The notes under the pieces: model-generated
Databases searched by the model: none
Told to the model about the DNA's origin: nothing
Seen by the model: only the letters and a program-made list of their open reading frames with translations
Position numbers and translations under genes: made by a program
NCBI GenBank assembly: GCA_044225175.1
Contig: JBGAJA010000001.1
Span: 206,114 to 270,113, forward strand
DNA: 64,000 nucleotides
Source: Candidatus Omnitrophota bacterium
GTDB taxonomy: Bacteria > Omnitrophota > Gorgyraeia > Zapsychrales > Fredricksoniimonadaceae
Direction of reading: 5' to 3'
Part shown: positions 47,601-63,898 of the stretch, in pieces
How the letters are laid out: the number at the start of each line of letters is the position of its first letter
How positions within the stretch are numbered: position 1 is the stretch's first letter

Positions 47601-47637
47601 AATTCTTTTGGAGCATCGACCAAACTTCTTGGTATTT

Positions 47638-47726
47638 GGAGAGGTGGCAGAGTGGTCGAATGCGGCGGTCTCGAAAACCGTTGTCCGGCGTAAGTCGGAT
47701 CCAGGGTTCAAATCCCTGCCTCTCCG
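47638..47726 (+). tRNA. tRNA-Ser (anticodon CGA)
   Basis: GGAGAGG acceptor stem, long variable arm, anticodon loop CTCGAAA, T-arm CAGGGTTCAAATCCCTG. CCA is not encoded. Confidence 0.85.
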
Positions 47727-47734
47727 TTGAAAGA

Positions 47735-48382
47735 CATATGGGACATATACGAAAAATTGGGGAAGTGTATTATATTGAATTTTTTGCTAGAGGATTGATG
47801 TATTCTCAGGTTGCAGGTCTAACTGAAGAAGGAGCCCGAGAGATGCTTGAAAAGATTGAGAGTAAGATCTCAGCAGGGGAAGCTTTAACGATTGTCAGGC
47901 AAATTAATTTAGATGTTTTTTTTGAGAGGTATCTAGAAGATGTTCATGATCAATTTTCTTCAAAAAGTATTGAGCGTTTTTCTTCGGCCTGGAGAAGTCT
48001 ATTGAATTTTCTAAACAAAAATTATCCGGAAGTTTATCAGTTGTCTCAAATCACGCCATTTTTAATTGAGTCGTATAAAGCCTATTTAATTCCATTAGAA
48101 ACGCCTAAGATTGTCAATTTCACTCTGCTTTTGTTAAGGGAAATTTTTGAGTACGGTATTAAGATTGGGTTTTTAAACGACAATCCATCCTTACATGTCA
48201 CATTGTTGAAAATGACACCATCACCTTTAAGAAAGGGTGCCCGTTCCCAGATAGCAAAAGAATTATTAACTAACGGAGTAATATTAGGAAAAATTTATCA
48301 AGTTCTAAAATTGAAAGATGTGGCTCAGGTCATGTTTTGGTCAAATTTTATTCCCCTGAAAAGGGAAGATGTGTATAATTAA
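47735..48382 (+). pseudogene. Truncated tyrosine-recombinase (phage-type integrase): N-terminal arm-binding and SAM-like core-binding domains only
   Basis: GEVYYIEFFARGLMYSQVAGLTEEGAREMLEKIESKISAGE is the AP2-like integrase N-terminal domain, and ...SQITPFLIESYKAYL the core-binding domain. The ORF ends at the start of the catalytic domain, so no RHRY catalytic residues are present. It sits 8 nt after the tRNA-Ser. Confidence 0.6.
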
Positions 48383-48403
48383 CGGCTTGTAACGCAATTT
48401 TGG

Positions 48404-48438
48404 GAGAGGTGGCAGAGTGGTCGAATGCGGCGGTCTTG
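48404..48438 (+). repeat. Direct repeat of the tRNA-Ser 5' half (att-like remnant)
   Basis: ggagaggtggcagagtggtcgaatgcggcggtct is identical to tRNA-Ser positions 1–35 and diverges at the anticodon loop. Confidence 0.7.
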
Positions 48439-48599
48439 AAATCCGAAAAAGCCCATTTTCTCAACCTCTTGAAATTGCTAAAAAGACCGCAGTTGTCGTC
48501 GACAAAATTGATTTTTAGGCCTTTGGATACTTTTGGATTTTTTAAGTATTTTTAATCTAAAACCGTCACGATTTCGACACCAAAAAAGGAGGTCAAAAA

Positions 48600-49010
48600 A
48601 TGACTTTCCAACCCATCAAAAGATTCATCACCCAATTTAATGACAAAACTTTTGCTACTCTATGGTTAGAGTCATTATTATTTTCTGTACTTTTTGGAAT
48701 AGGGTTTCATTCTTTGCTGGTATCTGTTTTGATGTTCGTAGGCTTAACATGGCTTATGAATAAGTGGAAAGGGACGCTCTATGCGATTCTCACGTTAAGT
48801 TTTCTGTGGGGATTTATTGTTTTCTGTATTTGTTATAGTGCTGGTGGATGGGTGTGGGGTCTTGGTTTAGGAGCGATAGTTTTTTATAAAGGAGTAAGAG
48901 TACATTTCCGTGAGTTAAAAGAGTCTTTGGATAATTTTAATTTTTTCACTTCTAATAATATTAGAGAGTGGCGACAAGATAATTATTGGGGTAGGCAGAA
49001 TTTGAATTAA
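48600..49010 (+). CDS. Small integral membrane protein (about 4 transmembrane helices)
   Basis: Strong RBS aaaaaggaggt. Hydrophobic segments. No domain recognised. Confidence 0.5.
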   Translation: MTFQPIKRFITQFNDKTFATLWLESLLFSVLFGIGFHSLLVSVLMFVGLTWLMNKWKGTLYAILTLSFLWGFIVFCICYSAGGWVWGLGLGAIVFYKGVRVHFRELKESLDNFNFFTSNNIREWRQDNYWGRQNLN

Positions 49011-49117
49011 TCATGGGACTCAATTTTTTATACCCTATGTGATTTAATAAATCACAGGAGGGTTCTTGTTTGAAGTAGAAAATAGTATTCAACACAATTG
49101 ACTTAAATGAGGATTAT

Positions 49118-50293
49118 ATGAGTGAGAATCAAGACATTGCTTTTAGTGCAGATTTAAGACCTGGTGGGAAAGAGGAATTGTTTGAGAATTTGAATGATTT
49201 TCAAATATGGCTAAATGTCGAACGAGAATTTTGGAACTGGATGGAAGTTCTGAGACAGAAGAATCCTAATGCTCACCACTACATTAATAGCTACTATCAG
49301 AGGTTAAATCAAATACAGGCTCATTTAGAAGCTACTCTTAATAATACAAATATTCCTCATCATCGGGGTCAATTAATTCAGGTTCTACAGAATTATTATC
49401 AAAAAAATCAATTAATTCACTCCTCACAACCCCGAGCAAAGTTTCTCAAAGAAATATTTGAAAAAGATCCAGCCCACGCTGTTTATACTTTGAAATTTTT
49501 TATTGATCGTAGATTTAATCAAGATACACCAGGAGAAATTGAAGGTTCTTTCTCTGCACTATTGTTTGAACATAATGTTAAGGATAGTAATAAAGGAGAA
49601 ACAAAAGCCCTGGAAGAACTTCGTGATTTGTGGCAAATACATCTAAATAATTCTAAGACAGATTTAACAAATATAACAAACGATTATGCGAACACTCTAA
49701 TAAAGCTTCAAGATCAAAAGAATGAAGAGAAGAAAAAATTTGAAGAATTATTAGGTAAAGCAGAAAAAGAACATGAGCAACGTATTGAAAAAGTGAAACA
49801 ACGCTTTAAAGAAATTGAAGACCTCTATGAGAAAAAATTAGCGCTTCATGCTTCAATTAAATATTGGGGAGAGAAAGCGAAAAGTCATTTTAGATGGTCG
49901 ATAGGGTTTACTATAGCTACTCTCGGGGGGTTTTATATTGCAGGGAATTGGTTATATAACATTATGAGATCAGTGATAGGAAATGCAACAATCAAAGACC
50001 TAGAAGTATGGAAAATAGGGTTGCTGTTAATTGCAGCGACAATAGGTGTTTGGATAACACGGGTTTTAATAAGATTGTTGTTAAGTAATGTTCATTTATG
50101 GAATGATGCCAATGAGCGAAGGACAATGATTCAAACATACTTGGCCTTACATAATGAAGGCAAAATGCCTGACCAATCACGAGAATTGATTCTTCAGGCT
50201 TTGTTTCGTCCTACAAGCACGGGTATAGTAAAGGATGATGCAGCTCCTCCTTTTATGGCTGAATGGTTAAAGAGAACAACAGGGGCCGACTAA
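49118..50293 (+). CDS. Hypothetical protein: N-terminal helical/coiled-coil domain, two transmembrane helices, short C-terminal tail
   Basis: 391 aa. Transmembrane helices near residues 255–275 and 290–315. Convergent with the TIR gene. Confidence 0.5.
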   Translation: MSENQDIAFSADLRPGGKEELFENLNDFQIWLNVEREFWNWMEVLRQKNPNAHHYINSYYQRLNQIQAHLEATLNNTNIPHHRGQLIQVLQNYYQKNQLIHSSQPRAKFLKEIFEKDPAHAVYTLKFFIDRRFNQDTPGEIEGSFSALLFEHNVKDSNKGETKALEELRDLWQIHLNNSKTDLTNITNDYANTLIKLQDQKNEEKKKFEELLGKAEKEHEQRIEKVKQRFKEIEDLYEKKLALHASIKYWGEKAKSHFRWSIGFTIATLGGFYIAGNWLYNIMRSVIGNATIKDLEVWKIGLLLIAATIGVWITRVLIRLLLSNVHLWNDANERRTMIQTYLALHNEGKMPDQSRELILQALFRPTSTGIVKDDAAPPFMAEWLKRTTGAD

Positions 50294-50342
50294 TGACTTT
50301 AAGGAATACAAGAATTTTATAGAAAATAAGCAATTTTGAGAA

Positions 50343-51695
50343 TTAAAAATGCTGCAATGAACTAAAAGGAGTGCTTCCTTCTCGAGGGGCATTTCCGTTT
50401 ATATAAACTTTCCACAAAACCACGTATTGAGCCCTATTCTGCCATTTATCAAAATTTAAAGAGTAAATGAGGTTGGATATTCCGTTTTCTCCAAATATTC
50501 GTATTTTCTTGCCTGGTAAAAGGAATTTATTAAATTCTTTTTTACCGCTATCTGGTAGAGCGGAATAGTCAAATATAAGATTTAAATAGCCAGGGTTATC
50601 CCGTGATTCACTCGACGTTAAATGAGGGTATTCCCATTTTTTCTTTTCCATATATTCACTAGGAAATTGAAGTTCAATAACAATATTTTTAAATTCTTCT
50701 TTTGTCTTATTTTCGATTTCAAGAAGGAAAGAATATTCGTGTAACTCTGAGGTTTGTTTCAAGGTTTTATAGGTTACTTCTACGTTGGCAGATGATGCGA
50801 TTGGAGAATATCCTTCTTTTAATTTGAGGAGTTCTGTTAATTCGTCTGGTTGCATAGTGTAGGTATTATTTGGAATTCCAAATTGTTCACATATTTTCTT
50901 ACAACTACTTAAAAGATCGGTTGAATCGAATAGTGTTATCCCTTGTGTAACTAAATTTAAAGGTGATCCAAATTCAGTTGGTGATATATTGGTATACATA
51001 GGATAGATTTTAAAACCTCGACCCCAAACGGCAGCGGATTCCCACCATACCCAAGAAGACTCCTGAGCCAATCGAGAGCAAATAGGAATTATAGCCTCTG
51101 CATTTTTTAAATTGGTTTCTAACATAATTTTTAGAGGGTCATCGCCAGGTTGTATACTACGTCTTGCGATAAATATCTCTGCCTTATCTTGAGTAAATTT
51201 TCTAAGTATTTTTTTTATGAAATCAGCTAAAGCGAGTTCTTCACTGGCATAACTGATAAAGATTATAGGGAGTTGTTGAATGGGGCACCTCTCTTTTATA
51301 TATCTAATTTTTTCTTCTGCAATTTCTTTTGTTTGTGAGGTTACACGTATTAGGCCCTCTTTCTTAAAGGGTGTATAAATGAAGGTGCATCTTGGGCTAT
51401 TATTCGTTGTTCCACTTATGCAAATATCATAAGTTAATTCTTGTTTGTATGCTTGAATAAGTTCAGCCAGGCTACTTACGGTGTGTTTAATGCCATCTGC
51501 GCTGTGCCAATAAGCAGTGATCCCACCAATAACATGTGGGTAACCAGGGAAGCCTTGAAACTCTTTACCCCAAGTTTGATCAAAAATTTCAAATAGTTGA
51601 TCTGAGGTTAGAATTTCGGGGGAAAATCCAATATAAGATAAGGTTACGCTGCTTTTCATTTTTGATAATATACTGCGCAAGACTTCAAAGGTCAA
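50343..51695 (-). CDS. TIR-domain protein with unknown N- and C-terminal domains (candidate defence or NADase effector)
   Basis: The central PIIFISYASEELALADF...AIIPICSRLAQESSWVWWESAAVW matches the TIR βA (FISY) and SxW...E motifs. The tracked start is TTG; an alternative ATG lies at 51659. Confidence 0.6.
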   Translation of the reverse strand: MTFEVLRSILSKMKSSVTLSYIGFSPEILTSDQLFEIFDQTWGKEFQGFPGYPHVIGGITAYWHSADGIKHTVSSLAELIQAYKQELTYDICISGTTNNSPRCTFIYTPFKKEGLIRVTSQTKEIAEEKIRYIKERCPIQQLPIIFISYASEELALADFIKKILRKFTQDKAEIFIARRSIQPGDDPLKIMLETNLKNAEAIIPICSRLAQESSWVWWESAAVWGRGFKIYPMYTNISPTEFGSPLNLVTQGITLFDSTDLLSSCKKICEQFGIPNNTYTMQPDELTELLKLKEGYSPIASSANVEVTYKTLKQTSELHEYSFLLEIENKTKEEFKNIVIELQFPSEYMEKKKWEYPHLTSSESRDNPGYLNLIFDYSALPDSGKKEFNKFLLPGKKIRIFGENGISNLIYSLNFDKWQNRAQYVVLWKVYINGNAPREGSTPFSSLQHF

Positions 51696-51795
51696 TGTAC
51701 CATTAGTAAACGAAGCGAACTTTATTTTTTACTACAAACAAACTACAAAAAGAACTACATCCGTGTAGTTGTTTTGTAGTAAATGTCTTTCCTAA

Positions 51796-51916
51796 CTCTC
51801 CCATTTGCAAGGGGTTTTTGGGGAAAAGCACCCAAAACTGTTCCCGACCCCACTCCCTCAACCATAGGTTAAGCGGAGGGACTGGGGTCGGGAACTACCA
51901 ATTGCAAATGGGAGAG
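51796..51916. repeat. Nested inverted-repeat structured element (perfect 15-bp outer inverted repeat plus 20-bp inner hairpin)
   Basis: Outer ctctcccatttgcaa / ttgcaaatgggagag. Inner gttcccgaccccactccctc–loop–gagggactggggtcgggaac. An additional ttttggg/cccaaaa hairpin lies between. Confidence 0.6.
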
Positions 51917-51987
51917 AGTAGAAGGGTGAGAAGATGTTGTATACTTGAGAAGGTGGTTAAGGAAGAATTTAAAAGGGAGGAATTATT

Positions 51988-52509
51988 ATGGAAACAGTAG
52001 GATTTTTTAACGGTGTATTAGGTGATGTATTTAAAACAGTAAGGCAAAGAATAGGAATTAAAGCTGATATTGATTTAGAAAAGATGAGGTTGATTGCAGA
52101 TAAAAAAGAAACACGTATTAAGGAATTAAAAGAGGCTCATAATATTTTGTTTGATCTGTCTAAGGAGTTCTCTCAGGACACTACTTATATCTTTTTTTCA
52201 TCAAAAATGAGCAGAGACCAATACAATAATCGATACCTAGATAAATGGACTGATCTCAATCGATTTATGGCCATAATAGCTACATACTTTCCCCAACTAA
52301 ATGATTTGGCGGAAAAGCTGGCTGGGAAGATAAATATTTATTGGGGTCAACAGCAGAATTTGTTATACCAAAAAGAAAAAGGTAGCGATCAGGTGGTTTG
52401 TATGGAAGTATTAAATAATGTTACTCAAGCAACGTTCAATATTGAAGAAACCATAAATTCTCTTAAGGTAGGTCTCAATAAAATATTAAATGAATTGAAA
52501 GAGGATTAG
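51988..52509 (+). CDS. Hypothetical protein
   Basis: 173 aa. RBS aaaagggagg. No domain recognised. Confidence 0.45.
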   Translation: METVGFFNGVLGDVFKTVRQRIGIKADIDLEKMRLIADKKETRIKELKEAHNILFDLSKEFSQDTTYIFFSSKMSRDQYNNRYLDKWTDLNRFMAIIATYFPQLNDLAEKLAGKINIYWGQQQNLLYQKEKGSDQVVCMEVLNNVTQATFNIEETINSLKVGLNKILNELKED

Positions 52510-52766
52510 TTTTAAATCTTTACCAACCGTTTTAATCAAATCCGCAGGTGGTTTGTCTCTGGTGCAGACAGGTTAGGCACATTCATTAGTTCAAGAGTTC
52601 GTATTCGTACGCTCCCGCATCCTTTCGATTGTTTTTTCGATTCTGTCATACGTATCAAGGACTACGCCCCACATAAAGCCTGTGAGGCTTGCAAGTGCTC
52701 CGCTCCGCTTCGCATCCTTGACACGTATGCCTTTAGATAATTAAAAAAATCGAAAGGAAACTCACT

Positions 52767-53285
52767 ATGCAAAACACACAAACAACACCAAAAATCTATG
52801 TAGCTTGTCTGGCAGCTTACAATAATGGTTTCTTACATGGTAAATGGATTGAAGCCAATCAGGAAGCAGAAGCTATCTATAAAGAGATACAAGAAATGTT
52901 AGCCAAAAGTCCTATAGCTGGTGCAGAAGAATGGGCTATCCATGATTATGAAGGCTTCATGGGTTTACAGTTATCAGAGTCTGAGGATATTGTTACTGTA
53001 GCAAGCATAGCGGTTATGTTAGAAAAGCATGGAGAAGCTTGGGCATTGTTTACGGAACATGATGGCATAGAATACGCCACAGAAGAGAGATTTGAAGAAG
53101 CGTATGAAGGTGAGTGGGATTCAGAAGAAGATTTTGCTGAAAATTTGGCTAGTGAGACTATGGAAATTCCGAAGCATTTAGAATTTTACATAGATTACGG
53201 GAAACTAGCCTATGATCTTTTCATTAACGATTATTTTTCTGCGGAAGGAAGTAGCCATAAGGTTCATGTATTTAGAAGGCTTTAA
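52767..53285 (+). CDS. ardA: Antirestriction protein ArdA
   Basis: KIYVACLAAYNNGFLHGKWIE...EEWAIHDYEGF and C-terminal LEFYIDYGKLAYDL are collinear with Tn916-type ArdA. Strongly acidic. Confidence 0.8.
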   Translation: MQNTQTTPKIYVACLAAYNNGFLHGKWIEANQEAEAIYKEIQEMLAKSPIAGAEEWAIHDYEGFMGLQLSESEDIVTVASIAVMLEKHGEAWALFTEHDGIEYATEERFEEAYEGEWDSEEDFAENLASETMEIPKHLEFYIDYGKLAYDLFINDYFSAEGSSHKVHVFRRL

Positions 53286-53386: not shown

Positions 53387-53767
53387 ATGAATAAGATTTT
53401 TACATCTTTTCTTGTTACATCCTTTCTTGCGACTTCTTTTCTTTGTTCTTGCGTAGGTAGTGCAGAGACTTTTTTAGATTCAGATGTTCATCATGATGAA
53501 TCAGACTGTCATTCCCATCAAGATAAAAGCGATCATTCATCTAAAAAAGATTGTGATTGCTGTGCGACTAAAATAATCAATGCCGATATTACTGCTAAAA
53601 ATGTTTTGGCAGTGCCTGGCAGTCTTTCTCAACAATCGTTTATTTTTAGTAGTACTTTTTTGAATAGAAATATTGATCTAAAGCAAAATCTTTCTTATGC
53701 CCATGGCCCTCCAGGGTCTGTAAGTCTAGTTCCTCTGTATATCCAATTCCACAGCCTTCGTATTTAA
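53387..53767 (+). CDS. Secreted or lipoprotein-like Cys/His/Asp-rich protein (putative metal-binding)
   Basis: Signal peptide ...FLCSC. HHDESDCHSHQDKSDHSSKKDCDCC cluster. Confidence 0.5.
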   Translation: MNKIFTSFLVTSFLATSFLCSCVGSAETFLDSDVHHDESDCHSHQDKSDHSSKKDCDCCATKIINADITAKNVLAVPGSLSQQSFIFSSTFLNRNIDLKQNLSYAHGPPGSVSLVPLYIQFHSLRI

Positions 53768-57710: not shown

Positions 57711-57742
57711 TTGACTCTCCACCATACTGGAAGGTGTATAGT
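57711..57742 (+). promoter_or_regulatory. MerR-type promoter: TTGACT, 20 nt spacer, TATAGT, with a GGAAGGT half-site in the spacer
   Basis: ttgactctccaccatactggaaggtgtatagt. The over-long spacer is typical of MerR/CueR-controlled promoters. It sits upstream of the MerR-family gene. Confidence 0.5.
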
Positions 57743-58313: not shown

Positions 58314-58964
58314 ATGCATGGAGATGAATTAGGGAGTTATGCCTATGGTATGTGGCCTGTGGTAATTTTTAACATACTTATTTTTTCTTTTTTTATCATT
58401 AGTTTTGTTAAGCCTCAAGGCAAAGTCGAATGGGCTTCTATGGGTGCTTTCATAGGATTTATCGTCGCTTTATTTACAGAAATGTACGGCTTTCCGTTGA
58501 CGATTTATCTCTTGTCAACCTGGATGGGGAAATCATATCCAGTTTTAAATCCATTTTCTCATAATCATGGTCATTTATGGCTGGTTTTGTTGGGGTTGGC
58601 TGATTCTGCATGGGCGATGACTCTTCTACATATAGTGAGCAATGGCATGATTCTTATCGGTTTTTATATAATTCAGAAGGGCTGGGTGCTTATCCATGCC
58701 GCAGCCGGCAAACGTTTGGTAACAGAAGGTATTTATGCTCATATACGACATCCTCAATATAGTGGGATGTTTTTGATAACCTTAGGTTTTCTTTTGCAAT
58801 GGCCTTCGATATTAAGTCTGGTGATGTGGCCTATTTTGATGTTCGCCTATTATCGTCTGGCTATGAAGGAAGAAAAAGACGTTCAGAAAATATTCGGGAA
58901 ACAATATGAGGAATACAGGAAGACAGTTCCTGCATTTATTCCTAAATGGGGAGGTACAAAATGA
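58314..58964 (+). CDS. Isoprenylcysteine carboxyl methyltransferase (ICMT/PEMT)-family membrane methyltransferase
   Basis: LVTEGIYAHIRHPQYSGMFL... is the family signature. Confidence 0.65.
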   Translation: MHGDELGSYAYGMWPVVIFNILIFSFFIISFVKPQGKVEWASMGAFIGFIVALFTEMYGFPLTIYLLSTWMGKSYPVLNPFSHNHGHLWLVLLGLADSAWAMTLLHIVSNGMILIGFYIIQKGWVLIHAAAGKRLVTEGIYAHIRHPQYSGMFLITLGFLLQWPSILSLVMWPILMFAYYRLAMKEEKDVQKIFGKQYEEYRKTVPAFIPKWGGTK

Positions 58965-59113
58965 CAAATACAATGTTTATTCTTATTGTGTTTATAGTTC
59001 TAATTGCTTTCATGATGATGAGAAAAGGCGGTGGAGGTTGTTGCGGTGGTCATCATGATGAAAAATCTGAAACAGATAAAAAAGAGGATGATAGGAAGCA
59101 CGGGTGTCATTAA
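58961..59113 (+). CDS. Small membrane peptide (50 aa) with GGGGCCGGHH and C-terminal HGCH motifs
   Basis: Not in the ORF track (under 60 aa). ATG overlaps the upstream stop (ATGA). One transmembrane helix then the Cys/His tail. Confidence 0.5.
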   Translation: MTNTMFILIVFIVLIAFMMMRKGGGGCCGGHHDEKSETDKKEDDRKHGCH

Positions 59114-59157
59114 CGGGAATTATCTAAAGATTGTAAAACTTGGAAAGGAGGATTGAA

Positions 59158-59409
59158 ATGAAAAATCATAATCATGGTTTATGGATGATGCTCTGTTGCA
59201 TTTTGCCTTTATTGGCAATTTTTCTGTTGCCGGGCTTTGGAGCTAGGGGTAATTCTTCAATTCTATTCTTTGTCATTATGATGTTTGCTTGTCATTTTAT
59301 GATGATGGGTGGTCATCAGCATGGTGAAGAGAATACTGACAATAAGACAGAGAATGAAGAAGATAAAAATAAAGAACACAAGGAAGGGGGTCATCATGGG
59401 TGTCATTAA
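59158..59409 (+). CDS. Small membrane protein with CC and C-terminal GGHHGCH motif, paralogous tail to the 58961 peptide
   Basis: RBS aaaggagg. MKNHNHGLWMMLCCILPLL... ending ...GGHHGCH. Confidence 0.55.
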   Translation: MKNHNHGLWMMLCCILPLLAIFLLPGFGARGNSSILFFVIMMFACHFMMMGGHQHGEENTDNKTENEEDKNKEHKEGGHHGCH

Positions 59410-59686
59410 TATTAAAAGATTCGGACTAGCGGTTGGTTTAACTCTGGTTTTTTTACGTCTGGGGTGCATCATTGTGTTTTTAATGACAACTAGGGAACAG
59501 GCAGTAGTTTTTTTTAATACTCTTTTGCATGGGATCGATGTTAGTTCGATATTAAAGACTGAAATGTCTGTCTTAGAGATGGTATTTGGACTGATTCAGA
59601 TATTTATTTTAGGGTGGTTAACAGGAGCAACAATAGCTAGTATTTATAACTTTAGTTTTAATAAAAAGAAAGGGTGTTGCATATGA
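59396..59686 (+). CDS. Small membrane protein ending in KKKGCCI
   Basis: ATG at 59396 preceded by ggaaggggg. Three hydrophobic segments. I rejected the ORF tracker's N-terminal extension at 59309, which overlaps the upstream gene. Confidence 0.4.
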   Translation: MGVINIKRFGLAVGLTLVFLRLGCIIVFLMTTREQAVVFFNTLLHGIDVSSILKTEMSVLEMVFGLIQIFILGWLTGATIASIYNFSFNKKKGCCI

Positions 59687-59820
59687 AAAACAATATTATA
59701 GGTATCATAGTATTTGCTATTTTAATAGTCTCAGGATTAGCCTTTGCTCATACGATGGGAATGGGTGGCGGTTGTTGCGGTGGTGCTCATCATACCTGTA
59801 GTCTGCATCACGCTCAGTAA
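59683..59820 (+). CDS. Small membrane peptide (45 aa) with MGMGGGCCGGAHH motif
   Basis: Not in the ORF track. One transmembrane helix plus a GGGCCGG.HH tail like the 58961 peptide. Confidence 0.5.
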   Translation: MKNNIIGIIVFAILIVSGLAFAHTMGMGGGCCGGAHHTCSLHHAQ

Positions 59821-62871: not shown

Positions 62872-63642
62872 TTGTTTATGCGTGCGATTCCGCAAAAAAT
62901 TCAAATCTTGAAGTTCATAGGGGAACAGGGAATTGTTACTCTCTCTGATGTATCCCGCCATTTATTTAGTGAAGATAAGCTTTCTTATGTACGGGTTACT
63001 ATGTATGAGCTAGGTATAGCTCACAAAAAATACCCAGATGTAGCTAATGGTGTTTGGTTTATTGATAATCCAAAACTTTATGAGCTATTGAGTCTTTATT
63101 TTCCTGATTTTCCGCAATTAGAAGTCAAACCCTTTACCCTACATAAAATCCCACATAGTTTAGAAATAAACCGTATCCGCAGTACATTTACTCAATCCCA
63201 TCTTATTACAATTGATGAATGGTGGTCAGAAAGGTTGATCTGGGCATTGCCTGTTTCCCATCGTGAAGATTTTTGTAGCGATAAAGTCCCTGATGCTATT
63301 TTTTGGCGTAGACGTAAGGATGGTAGCCGACAAAAATATTTTCTTGAATATGAACGCACTTTAAAGAGTAAAGAGCGTTACGAAGAGATTTTTCGCTCTT
63401 ATGCCAAGTGTAAAGATGTCAAAGACCGCAATGTCATCTACATTTGCCAGACTCTGCGTATTAAAGAAGAGCTTCAAGACATAGAAGAACGCTTAGTCAA
63501 AGCAGGTCGATTAGCTGATGTTGCTCTCTATTTTCAATTCATTACCCTCGAAGGCTTTTATAAAACACATTCAAACCACAATTTAAAGGAGGAAGTAAAC
63601 CATGAACAAACTCAAAAAGTATACGCAAACGTATCTGTTTAA
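62872..63642 (+). CDS. Hypothetical winged-helix-like protein (possible mobile-element replication, relaxation or regulatory protein)
   Basis: N-terminal ILKFIGEQGIVTLSDVSRHLF is wHTH-like. Preceded by an inverted-repeat-rich intergenic region. Confidence 0.35.
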   Translation: MFMRAIPQKIQILKFIGEQGIVTLSDVSRHLFSEDKLSYVRVTMYELGIAHKKYPDVANGVWFIDNPKLYELLSLYFPDFPQLEVKPFTLHKIPHSLEINRIRSTFTQSHLITIDEWWSERLIWALPVSHREDFCSDKVPDAIFWRRRKDGSRQKYFLEYERTLKSKERYEEIFRSYAKCKDVKDRNVIYICQTLRIKEELQDIEERLVKAGRLADVALYFQFITLEGFYKTHSNHNLKEEVNHEQTQKVYANVSV

Positions 63643-63898
63643 TTGTTTATTAATGACATTTTTGTTCTTTATTCTTTTTAATACACCTGCTTTTGCTGAT
63701 TTAACTAGCAGTATGGAAGACTTGCAAAGCAGGGTAAGGAGTATTTGCACACCTTTAGCAATAATCTTTCTTGTCATTGCAGGTATGCAAAAGGCAATGG
63801 GGAATAACCAGATTTTTGTTCTGGCTTTGGTTGGAACAATCATCATGTTTGGGGCCCCACAAATTGTTTCTTTTATTAGCGCTGCCTTTGGAGGGTAA
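63602..63898 (+). CDS. TrbC/VirB2-like conjugative type IV secretion pilin
   Basis: 98 aa. Signal peptide ...NTPAFA|DL, then two hydrophobic helices separated by a short polar loop. Confidence 0.5.
   Translation: MNKLKKYTQTYLFNCLLMTFLFFILFNTPAFADLTSSMEDLQSRVRSICTPLAIIFLVIAGMQKAMGNNQIFVLALVGTIIMFGAPQIVSFISAAFGG

Follow-up and report, generated by a model that had tools for sequence, protein, structure and literature searches.

Conserved small Cys/His-rich proteins in a copA locus of an Omnitrophota bacterium: candidate copper accessory proteins and a divergent branch of DUF2933

Background

In the mercury transporters MerF, MerT and MerE, a pair of cysteines within transmembrane (TM) helix 1 serves Hg(II), and both cysteine pairs of MerF face the cytoplasm (PMC5500634, PMC5715351). 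Another type of metal-ligand sequence is found in SlyD, whose unstructured tail binds several metal ions and acts as chaperone or reservoir (PMC7055735). Motifs resembling both were encountered here among the products of four small open reading frames (ORFs), designated A to D, from a copper locus of a Candidatus Omnitrophota bacterium. The locus lies on contig JBGAJA010000001.1 of assembly GCA_044225175.1, within a stretch of 64,000 nucleotides (positions 206,114 to 270,113) hereafter called the window, to which coordinates refer unless a related locus is named. The ORFs are preceded by the gene of an ICMT-type membrane methyltransferase and followed by the genes of a Met-rich protein and of the copper ATPase CopA.

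Small proteins of Family DUF2933 (PF11666) have already been recorded in such a setting. A core cluster merR-copA-cupredoxin-DUF2933-ICMT was tabulated on genomic islands of marine gammaproteobacteria, with DUF2933-ICMT pairing in more than 30 of these organisms (PMC8478169), and a DUF2933-ICMT operon of Bradyrhizobium lies next to a methionine adenosyltransferase gene (PMC9104804). Among the literature mentioning DUF2933, no paper was found that addresses its function, and a literature search found no mention of DUF5676, the second family concerned here. The proximity of DUF2933 to ICMT and copA is thus already known (PMC8478169, PMC9104804), and the new element is a Cys-rich branch marked by a CCxxP motif. 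As classified from their sequences, the four products comprise members of two known families (DUF2933 and DUF5676) and two unclassified peptide types, namely one-helix GGCCGGH peptides and probably secreted GGGCC-His peptides.

Results and discussion

Four small genes under purifying selection

All four ORFs are genuine genes under purifying selection, and the coordinates (Table 1) and sequences given for them in an earlier note on this DNA were confirmed. Pairwise codon comparison with orthologs yielded ratios of non-synonymous to synonymous substitution (dN/dS) of 0.12-0.20 for A and B (0.20 for A against its ortholog in related locus L001), 0.08 for C and 0.26-0.48 for D; the value for the flanking ICMT gene was 0.04-0.08. 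The mature part of D (21 residues) differed from that of its closest relative, in locus L026, by four synonymous and no non-synonymous changes. The earlier note had proposed to look for these ORFs in related copper loci: gene order was kept in more than 15 loci of other organisms, and the frames were intact in more than 15 diverged loci. Gene order and dN/dS bear out the ORF products as small proteins or peptides of the membrane that are conserved, carry Cys/His motifs and reside in MerR-controlled copA loci.

In a Logan assembly of 100% identical DNA, gene calls were exactly 50, 83, 96 and 45 aa long and had the same coordinates. The NCBI calls of the source genome include D, ICMT, MerR, the Met-rich protein, CopA and, with a longer start, C. 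A and B are not among the gene calls of the source NCBI contig, in line with the remark in the earlier note that two of the ORFs were absent from its ORF track. The DUF5676 gene (C) starts at 59354 in the source annotation (59354-59686, 110 aa) and then overlaps B by 56 nt, whereas orthologs and Pfam favour a start at 59396 (96 aa); B may have been dropped because this over-long call overlaps it. The strings GGCC/GCCGG occurred twice in the six frames of the 64-kb window, only in A and D.

The genes are compactly arranged in the order merR, ICMT, A, B, C, D, Met-rich protein, copA. The ICMT stop overlaps the start of A (ATGA), A and B are separated by 44 nt, C overlaps B by 14 nt and the start of D overlaps the stop of C by four nt (ATGA); gaps of 66 nt and 17 nt follow between D and the Met-rich protein and between the latter and CopA. 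Shine-Dalgarno sequences lie six nt upstream of the ATG of A (GGAGG) and of B (AGGAGG). Together with the four-nt and 14-nt overlaps, they imply translational coupling.

Protein B and the CCxxP branch of DUF2933

Protein B has two hydrophobic helices. TM1 carries WMMLCCILP, with the vicinal Cys pair (MLCCILP) inside the helix; TM2 carries FACHFMMM and is followed by GGHQH, a charged tail with a single Cys and the C-terminal GGHHGCH. Nine close homologs of B were found, and a profile search with A-type and B-type sequences gathered 464 cluster representatives (50% identity clusters) at E<=1e-3. Among the best 150 of these representatives, 46 matched Pfam DUF2933 at E<=0.01, the top match reaching 1.1e-11. 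B of the window gave no DUF2933 match even at E<=10 and remained below the Pfam gathering threshold (21 bits); of its orthologs, P0011 passed this cut-off with 22.5 bits and P0009 scored 16.4 bits. The motif closing TM2 in DUF2933-type proteins, C-(P/H)-x-x-H...MM-x-G-H, is present in B together with the His-rich tail (FACHFMMMGGHQHG in B, CPLMHIFMHGGHGH in canonical members). Within the CCxxP branch, helix 1 displayed C..P in 145 of 159 relatives, and 40 of the 159 ended in -CH, where tail composition predicts 0.46. Canonical members share helix 2 and the His-rich segment and have another helix 1, so that A and B form a distinct CCxxP branch; judged by these features, B is a divergent member of DUF2933.

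Resemblance to the canonical family extends to size, to the two-helix layout, to the Cys-(Pro/His)...His...MM-G-H-G-H end of helix 2 with its His-rich tail, to the start/stop overlap with an orthologous ICMT gene and to a P1B ATPase nearby. In contrast, helix 1 reads ...E-H-x-x-H in canonical members and W-M-x-x-C-C-x-x-P in the branch of the window, many members of which end in -GCH. The window gene also lies downstream of ICMT and the canonical one upstream; in addition, the window copy falls below the Pfam threshold and A lacks helix 1 altogether.

The 14 nt shared by B and C (59396-59409, CATGGGTGTCATTAA) encode HGCH and the stop for B, and MGVIN for DUF5676. An overlap of this length is also seen in L001 and, at 6209-6222 of L005, in a Pontibacter plasmid, and the two genes overlap in further loci too. 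The HGCH end as a mere by-product of the overlapping DUF5676 start was ruled out, because A, L003, L014, L026 and many distant relatives display -GCH ends without any overlapping gene.

An AlphaFold2 model of B, computed from an 11-sequence alignment, displayed helices at residues 4-23 and 33-50 and a disordered tail; its mean pLDDT (predicted local distance difference test) of 58 means that it serves for helix boundaries only. Lys/Arg counts across the family (N-terminus 1.5, loop 0.57, first 15 residues of the tail 2.06) favour a cytoplasmic location of both ends. B is probably a two-helix hairpin of this orientation. If so, its CCxxP pair and the Cys-His of helix 2 would lie at equal depth near the cytoplasmic face, the helix-1 Cys about four residues and the helix-2 Cys/His about five residues from the cytoplasmic edge.

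Four metagenome-assembled genomes (MAGs) of Planctomycetaceae encode a B-like domain fused to Peptidase_M50 (L013:5968-7326, L017:5968-7326, L018:5944-7353 and L025:5938-7332). These proteins of ~450 aa begin with a B-like two-helix domain (WMMICCLLPI...), the rest being a site-2 protease (HELGH). From this fusion, the DUF2933-like module may be suspected of acting in sensing or regulation.

Peptide A

Peptide A (50 aa, MTNTMFILIVFIVLIAFMMMRKGGGGCCGGHHDEKSETDKKEDDRKHGCH) has one TM helix, followed by RKGGGGCCGGHH, a charged linker and a C-terminal HGCH (...RKGGGGCCGGHHDE...KHGCH). Its two database homologs are two-helix proteins of 71-77 aa whose helix 1 (MMxxCCLxPxL) matches that of B, and the closest related locus (L026, from a Planctomycetales MAG with DNA 87-90% identical) carries a full 78-aa form where the window has the 50-aa peptide. 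These comparisons show A to be a B paralog from which helix 1 has been lost. L001 likewise retains the short form, and one-helix MMRKGGCCGGH peptides of 47-48 aa were located between merR and copA in four metagenome contigs. A-type peptides matched no Pfam or NCBIfam model. The FeoB-associated Cys-rich membrane protein family (PF12669) was rejected for A: the best score was 13.2 bits (E 0.11, L001 ortholog) against a threshold of 27, and A of the window gave no match to it.

As A has no N-terminal charge and displays RK right after the helix, its tail is expected in the cytoplasm. The segment RK-GGGGCCGGHH...HGCH is thus probably cytoplasm-facing.

Protein C

Protein C is a clear member of DUF5676 (PF18926), with an E value of 8e-20 and 71.9 bits against a cut-off of 27.6, over profile positions 1-81 of 82. 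It ends in ...KKKGCCI. This GCCI is retained only in very close relatives and is absent from more distant orthologs; within DUF5676, terminal -GCCI or -KCCT is restricted to the lineage of the window.

DUF2933-like and DUF5676 genes were repeatedly found near genes for glucan phosphorylase (glgP), type II GAPDH, DUF1622, universal stress protein and SAM-methyltransferase. Loci with glgP/GAPDH-type neighbours were the Pontibacter plasmid (L005), a Stanieria plasmid (L031), L001 and L003. This suggests that the two families are linked to stress islands beyond copper.

Peptide D and the Met-rich protein

The N-terminus of D runs to ...SGLAFA and is followed by HTMGMGGGCCGGAHHTCSLHHAQ (excerpt ...MGMGGGCCGGAHHTCSLHHAQ). 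Inspected by eye, it consists of MKNN, a 15-residue hydrophobic core and AFA|H. It shares ~50% identity with the signal peptide that the Met-rich protein next to it carries, and looks like a copy of it. Given the N-terminal Lys and the A-x-A site, the tail of D is expected in the periplasm. D is probably exported; what then stays in the periplasm would be a peptide of ~21-23 residues in which Met, Gly, Cys-Cys and His abound.

The D family was small, with eight protein clusters among 5.8 billion proteins. Its invariant residues are G26, G28, C31, C32, H36 and H42 (G-x-G-x-x-CC...H...H), and D-type peptides matched no Pfam or NCBIfam model. By sequence comparison, D is a separate family, unrelated to A and B save for the GGGCC motif. 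The Met-rich protein matched no Pfam family either; it was located directly 5' of copA in at least eight related loci. Periplasmic Cu(I) binders of the CusF, PcoE/SilE and CopM types contain Met/Gly-rich stretches, as do D and the 140-aa Met-rich protein. D differs from them in having only ~21-23 residues after cleavage and in relying on an invariant vicinal Cys pair plus His.

The earlier note had seen in A, B and D repeated paralogs of one unannotated class, each with one hydrophobic helix and a Gly-flanked vicinal Cys pair with His. Paralogy holds for A, as a truncated relative of B; D is unrelated save for GGGCC and C belongs to DUF5676, so the four do not constitute one family. Likewise, a single TM helix was found in A and two in B, and Gly-flanked pairs (GGCC/GCCGG) occur in A and D, the pair of B lying inside helix 1 without flanking Gly. 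The GCCI end also listed for C is present, with the narrow distribution given above. A-type and D-type peptides indeed match no Pfam or NCBIfam model, while B and C go to a DUF2933 branch and to DUF5676.

Comparison with Mer transporters and SlyD

Like B, MerF and MerE are proteins of ~80 aa with two TM helices, and MerF, MerT and MerE share with it MerR-family control and a TM1 in which a Pro follows a vicinal Cys pair. These pairs could be aligned as MLCCILP in B, VCCLLP in two-helix A-type forms and LCCFTP in MerF. With hhalign, the CCxxP helix was in register with C21C22 of MerF and C24C25 of MerT (probability 42-43%, P ~2.5e-4, helix 1 only). Behind TM2, at the cytoplasmic end, two-helix A-type forms possess a further Cys pair, another point in common with MerF. 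Mer proteins differ in lacking the long tail, acidic and rich in Lys and His, that closes with GCH, and Mer systems by their context: that of the window is copper efflux (CopA, multicopper oxidase, Met-rich protein), and no mer genes (merA, merP) were found in the window or in related loci. Any homology to MerF/MerT would be tentative, as the hhalign match concerns a single helix and neither Pfam scans at E<=10 nor PDB sequence searches matched MerF/MerT (PF11431, PF02411); the likeness was kept only as functional analogy.

The tail of Escherichia coli SlyD (PDB 2KFW, residues 145-196) contains DGCCGGHGH and EGCCGGKG and ends in GCGCH. Shared with the small proteins of the window are a disordered, His/Cys/Asp/Glu-rich character, the short motifs GCCGGH and GCCGG and the C-terminal GCH. 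SlyD is a soluble FKBP prolyl isomerase active in nickel delivery, whereas the peptides of the window are membrane-anchored; the likeness is one of motif and composition, not homology (NCBIfam E 0.03-0.09, far below cut-off).

Conserved neighbourhood

The order ICMT-(A)-B-DUF5676-(small YHS)-(D)-Met-rich-CopA recurred in MAGs of Planctomycetales and Omnitrophota and in metagenome contigs. Three layouts were distinguished: short A with B (window, L001 and L002), two-helix A alone (L003, L014, L026, L034 and L035) and B alone (L004 and L007-L011). B-like genes were also found beside CopA with no ICMT there, in Clostridia, a Methanosarcinales archaeon and Patescibacteria.

A search anchored on the ICMT protein of the window uncovered orthologs (~51% identical) on 262 plasmids; tblastn of a canonical DUF2933 protein (P0152) against plasmids gave no match. 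In all four plasmids that were opened (from Alteromonas, Legionella anisa, Acinetobacter johnsonii and Stanieria, representing four different orders), an annotated DUF2933 gene overlaps the ICMT start by 4-11 nt, and three of these plasmids carry a heavy-metal ATPase gene alongside. The ICMT motifs RHPQY and EE..FG..Y..Y were invariant between the window and the plasmid orthologs. ICMT orthologs from metal islands also displayed an invariant S-H-x-x-G-H loop (FSHNHGH in the window), and His2, His106 and His146 were invariant across four phyla; this loop and the three residues could form a metal site on the methyltransferase.

Small stand-alone YHS/TRASH proteins of 52-61 aa were encountered in several of these loci (L003:7247-7432, L026:2809-2994, L015:1359-1523 and L007:3682-3855). 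Several of them end in a vicinal Cys pair (...SGSCCS, ...SGGCCG, ...SCPSCCGH), so terminal CC tails recur on soluble proteins of these operons.

Proposed function

We give about one chance in two to the view that A, B and D assist the CopA system as accessory proteins by binding Cu(I) and possibly Ag(I). This role is favoured by the MerF and SlyD motif analogues and by the composition of the locus: CopA of the window displayed no HMA/CopZ-type domain, and no CopZ/HMA chaperone was found in the locus. With their thiolate and imidazole ligands, A and B would capture or buffer Cu(I) where the membrane meets the cytoplasm and then deliver it to CopA. That translational coupling to ICMT and DUF5676 is conserved points to a membrane complex, in which ICMT would be a partner of both A and B, and DUF5676 an additional partner of B. 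Once exported, the ion would be dealt with in the periplasm by D together with the Met-rich protein. We infer topology, metal binding, the hand-off to CopA and any methyltransferase role, rather than observing them.

Several points weigh against a copper accessory role. Metal binding by DUF2933, DUF5676, A-type and D-type proteins is read from residue types and neighbours alone, and the AlphaFold2 model of B is of low confidence (pLDDT 58). Canonical DUF2933 proteins adjoin ICMT with neither CCxxP nor a -CH end, so these motifs are dispensable for the pairing. The B-like/DUF5676 pair of the Pontibacter plasmid has no copper genes nearby, and the DUF2933-ICMT operon of Bradyrhizobium is regulated by FixK2 (microoxic) and not known to be copper-responsive (PMC9104804). 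Vicinal Cys pairs of MerF have been described as favouring Hg(II) (PMC5500634), and the metal may therefore not be copper. Finally, the Cys-Cys of D might simply be oxidised in the periplasm.

A broader scheme, put forward here quite tentatively, would unite DUF5676 and ICMT with the two-helix CCxxP proteins and the one-helix GGCCGGH forms derived from them in a previously unrecognised membrane thiol relay for soft metals, a copper/silver counterpart of MerT/MerF. The methyltransferase would modify the metal-thiolate carrier or a lipid, and D would act outside the cytoplasm as a secreted Cys-Cys/His copper binder of ~20 residues.

Alternative explanations

The best surviving alternative, although an improbable one, assigns A and B to the ICMT-type methyltransferase as its dedicated partners; they would be its substrates or else a regulatory or metal-sensing subunit, and copper binding would be secondary. 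Methylation might take place on the C-terminal carboxylate of the peptide, on a His or on the thiol of a Cys; or, in response to metal, the peptide might gate the methylation of a lipid or thiol. Gene overlaps speak for such a partnership, both the 4-11 nt between DUF2933-type genes and ICMT in the four plasmids and the ATGA joining ICMT and A in the window, as do the pairings reported in marine gammaproteobacteria (PMC8478169) and Bradyrhizobium (PMC9104804). The enzyme itself is well kept, its orthologs being 51% identical across phyla with RHPQY, EE motifs and His residues intact, and its superfamily includes the MddA model, which describes a thiol S-methyltransferase. The main objection to a pure substrate role is that the -CH terminus was uncorrelated with ICMT adjacency. 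As a mark of ICMT substrates this end was ruled out, since canonical DUF2933 proteins beside ICMT end otherwise and -CH ends occur without ICMT. Moreover, B-like or A-like genes stand beside CopA in the absence of ICMT (Clostridia, the archaeon, Patescibacteria, L003 and the four MMRKGGCCGGH contigs), and no CaaX-like box was found.

It is somewhat less probable still that the two-helix A-type proteins and B, which might act singly or form a four-helix unit with DUF5676, do more than bind metal and, by a thiol relay like that of MerF/MerT, carry a soft metal such as Cu(I), Ag(I) or Hg(II) across the inner membrane. Their architecture is MerF-like, down to a Cys pair placed after basic residues behind TM2 (...FFMMMRKGGGCCGG in L026, ...IQRKRQADACC in MerF), and the CCxxP helix matched MerF/MerT in register (P ~2.5e-4). 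MerF alone suffices for Hg(II) transport (PMC5500634), and B is translationally coupled to DUF5676 across phyla. That match, however, involved one helix at a probability of only 42-43%, with no support from Pfam (E<=10) or PDB sequence searches and no merA or merP in the locus; an importer in a copper efflux operon would also have no obvious logic.

D, and possibly A, might instead be the precursor of a secreted, modified metal-binding natural product, chalkophore-like and of the type of ribosomally synthesised and post-translationally modified peptides (RiPPs), tailored by the methyltransferase. We consider this very unlikely: D does have a leader-plus-core layout with invariant CC and His, and the same operon encodes a methyltransferase, but no RiPP maturase, protease/exporter or MbnB/C-like gene was found in any examined locus, the supposed leader resembles a typical Sec-type signal common to the Met-rich protein, and D is present in L003, which is without ICMT.

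That the ORFs are untranslated chance frames in AT-rich DNA rich in Gly and Met codons, as their shortness and the lack of A and B from the NCBI calls might suggest, is refuted by the conservation data (dN/dS well below 1, frames intact in more than 15 diverged loci, hundreds of homologs), to which strong Shine-Dalgarno sites and identical coordinates from a second pipeline are added.

Genomic setting

Features of the locus are gathered in Table 1. The putative promoter upstream of merR, which resembles the copA/CueR operator of E. coli, was overlooked by a standard promoter scan because of its long spacer. The MerR-family regulator remained sub-threshold against the CueR, CadR, ZntR and MerR equivalog models. 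Other neighbours in the window included an outer-membrane efflux protein (OEP), a multicopper oxidase, a YHS protein, DUF2231 and MerR.

The copper locus sits in an apparent integrative mobile element, with features at 47637-53285 and at 63602-63898. One side is marked by tRNA-Ser(cga) (47637-47727), followed by a phage-integrase SAM-like remnant, and by two of the genes in Table 1; a pilin gene lies at the far end.

A conserved Cys-rich protein of ~120-126 aa adjoins copper genes both in the window (53387-53767) and in an Omnitrophota locus (L003:11233-11595). It contains CDCC or VCCC plus SSCCH, ends in ...VPLY(I/T)QFHSLRI and gave no Pfam match.

Table 1. Features of the copper locus and of the surrounding apparent mobile element (window coordinates)
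Feature	Coordinates	Strand	Remarks
Putative MerR/CueR-type promoter	57711..57742	+	TTGACT, 20-nt spacer, TATAGT, GGAAGGT half-site; 5' of merR; read from sequence
MerR-family metal-responsive regulator, 132 aa	57769..58167	+	Pfam MerR_1 2e-20, MerR-DNA-bind
ICMT/PEMT-family membrane methyltransferase, 216 aa	58314..58964	+	Pfam PEMT and ICMT
Peptide A, 50 aa, one TM helix	58961..59113	+	paralog of B without helix 1
Protein B, 83 aa, two TM helices	59158..59409	+	divergent DUF2933 branch
Protein C, 96 aa, two-TM	59396..59686	+	DUF5676 (PF18926)
Peptide D, 45 aa, signal-peptide-like N-terminus	59683..59820	+	unclassified
Met-rich secreted protein, 140 aa	59887..60309	+	signal peptide resembles that of D
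CopA-type P1B ATPase, 757 aa	60327..62600	+	YHS + HMBD N-terminal domains; CPC motif read from sequence
TIR-domain protein	50343-51695	-	mobile-element feature
ArdA antirestriction protein	52767-53285		mobile-element feature
TrbC/VirB2 pilin	63602-63898		far end of mobile element

Conclusions

Two of the four small genes at this locus, A and B, are missed by standard gene callers. On copper, silver and other heavy-metal islands, including those on plasmids of Acinetobacter, Legionella and Alteromonas, few uncharacterised genes are carried as often as those of DUF2933-type small proteins and the ICMT enzymes paired with them. In the branch represented by the window, the candidate ligand residues are unusually explicit, with MerF-like CCxxP, SlyD-like GCCGGH and -GCH tails and a predicted secreted CC/His peptide, and this branch therefore yields concrete and cheaply testable hypotheses.

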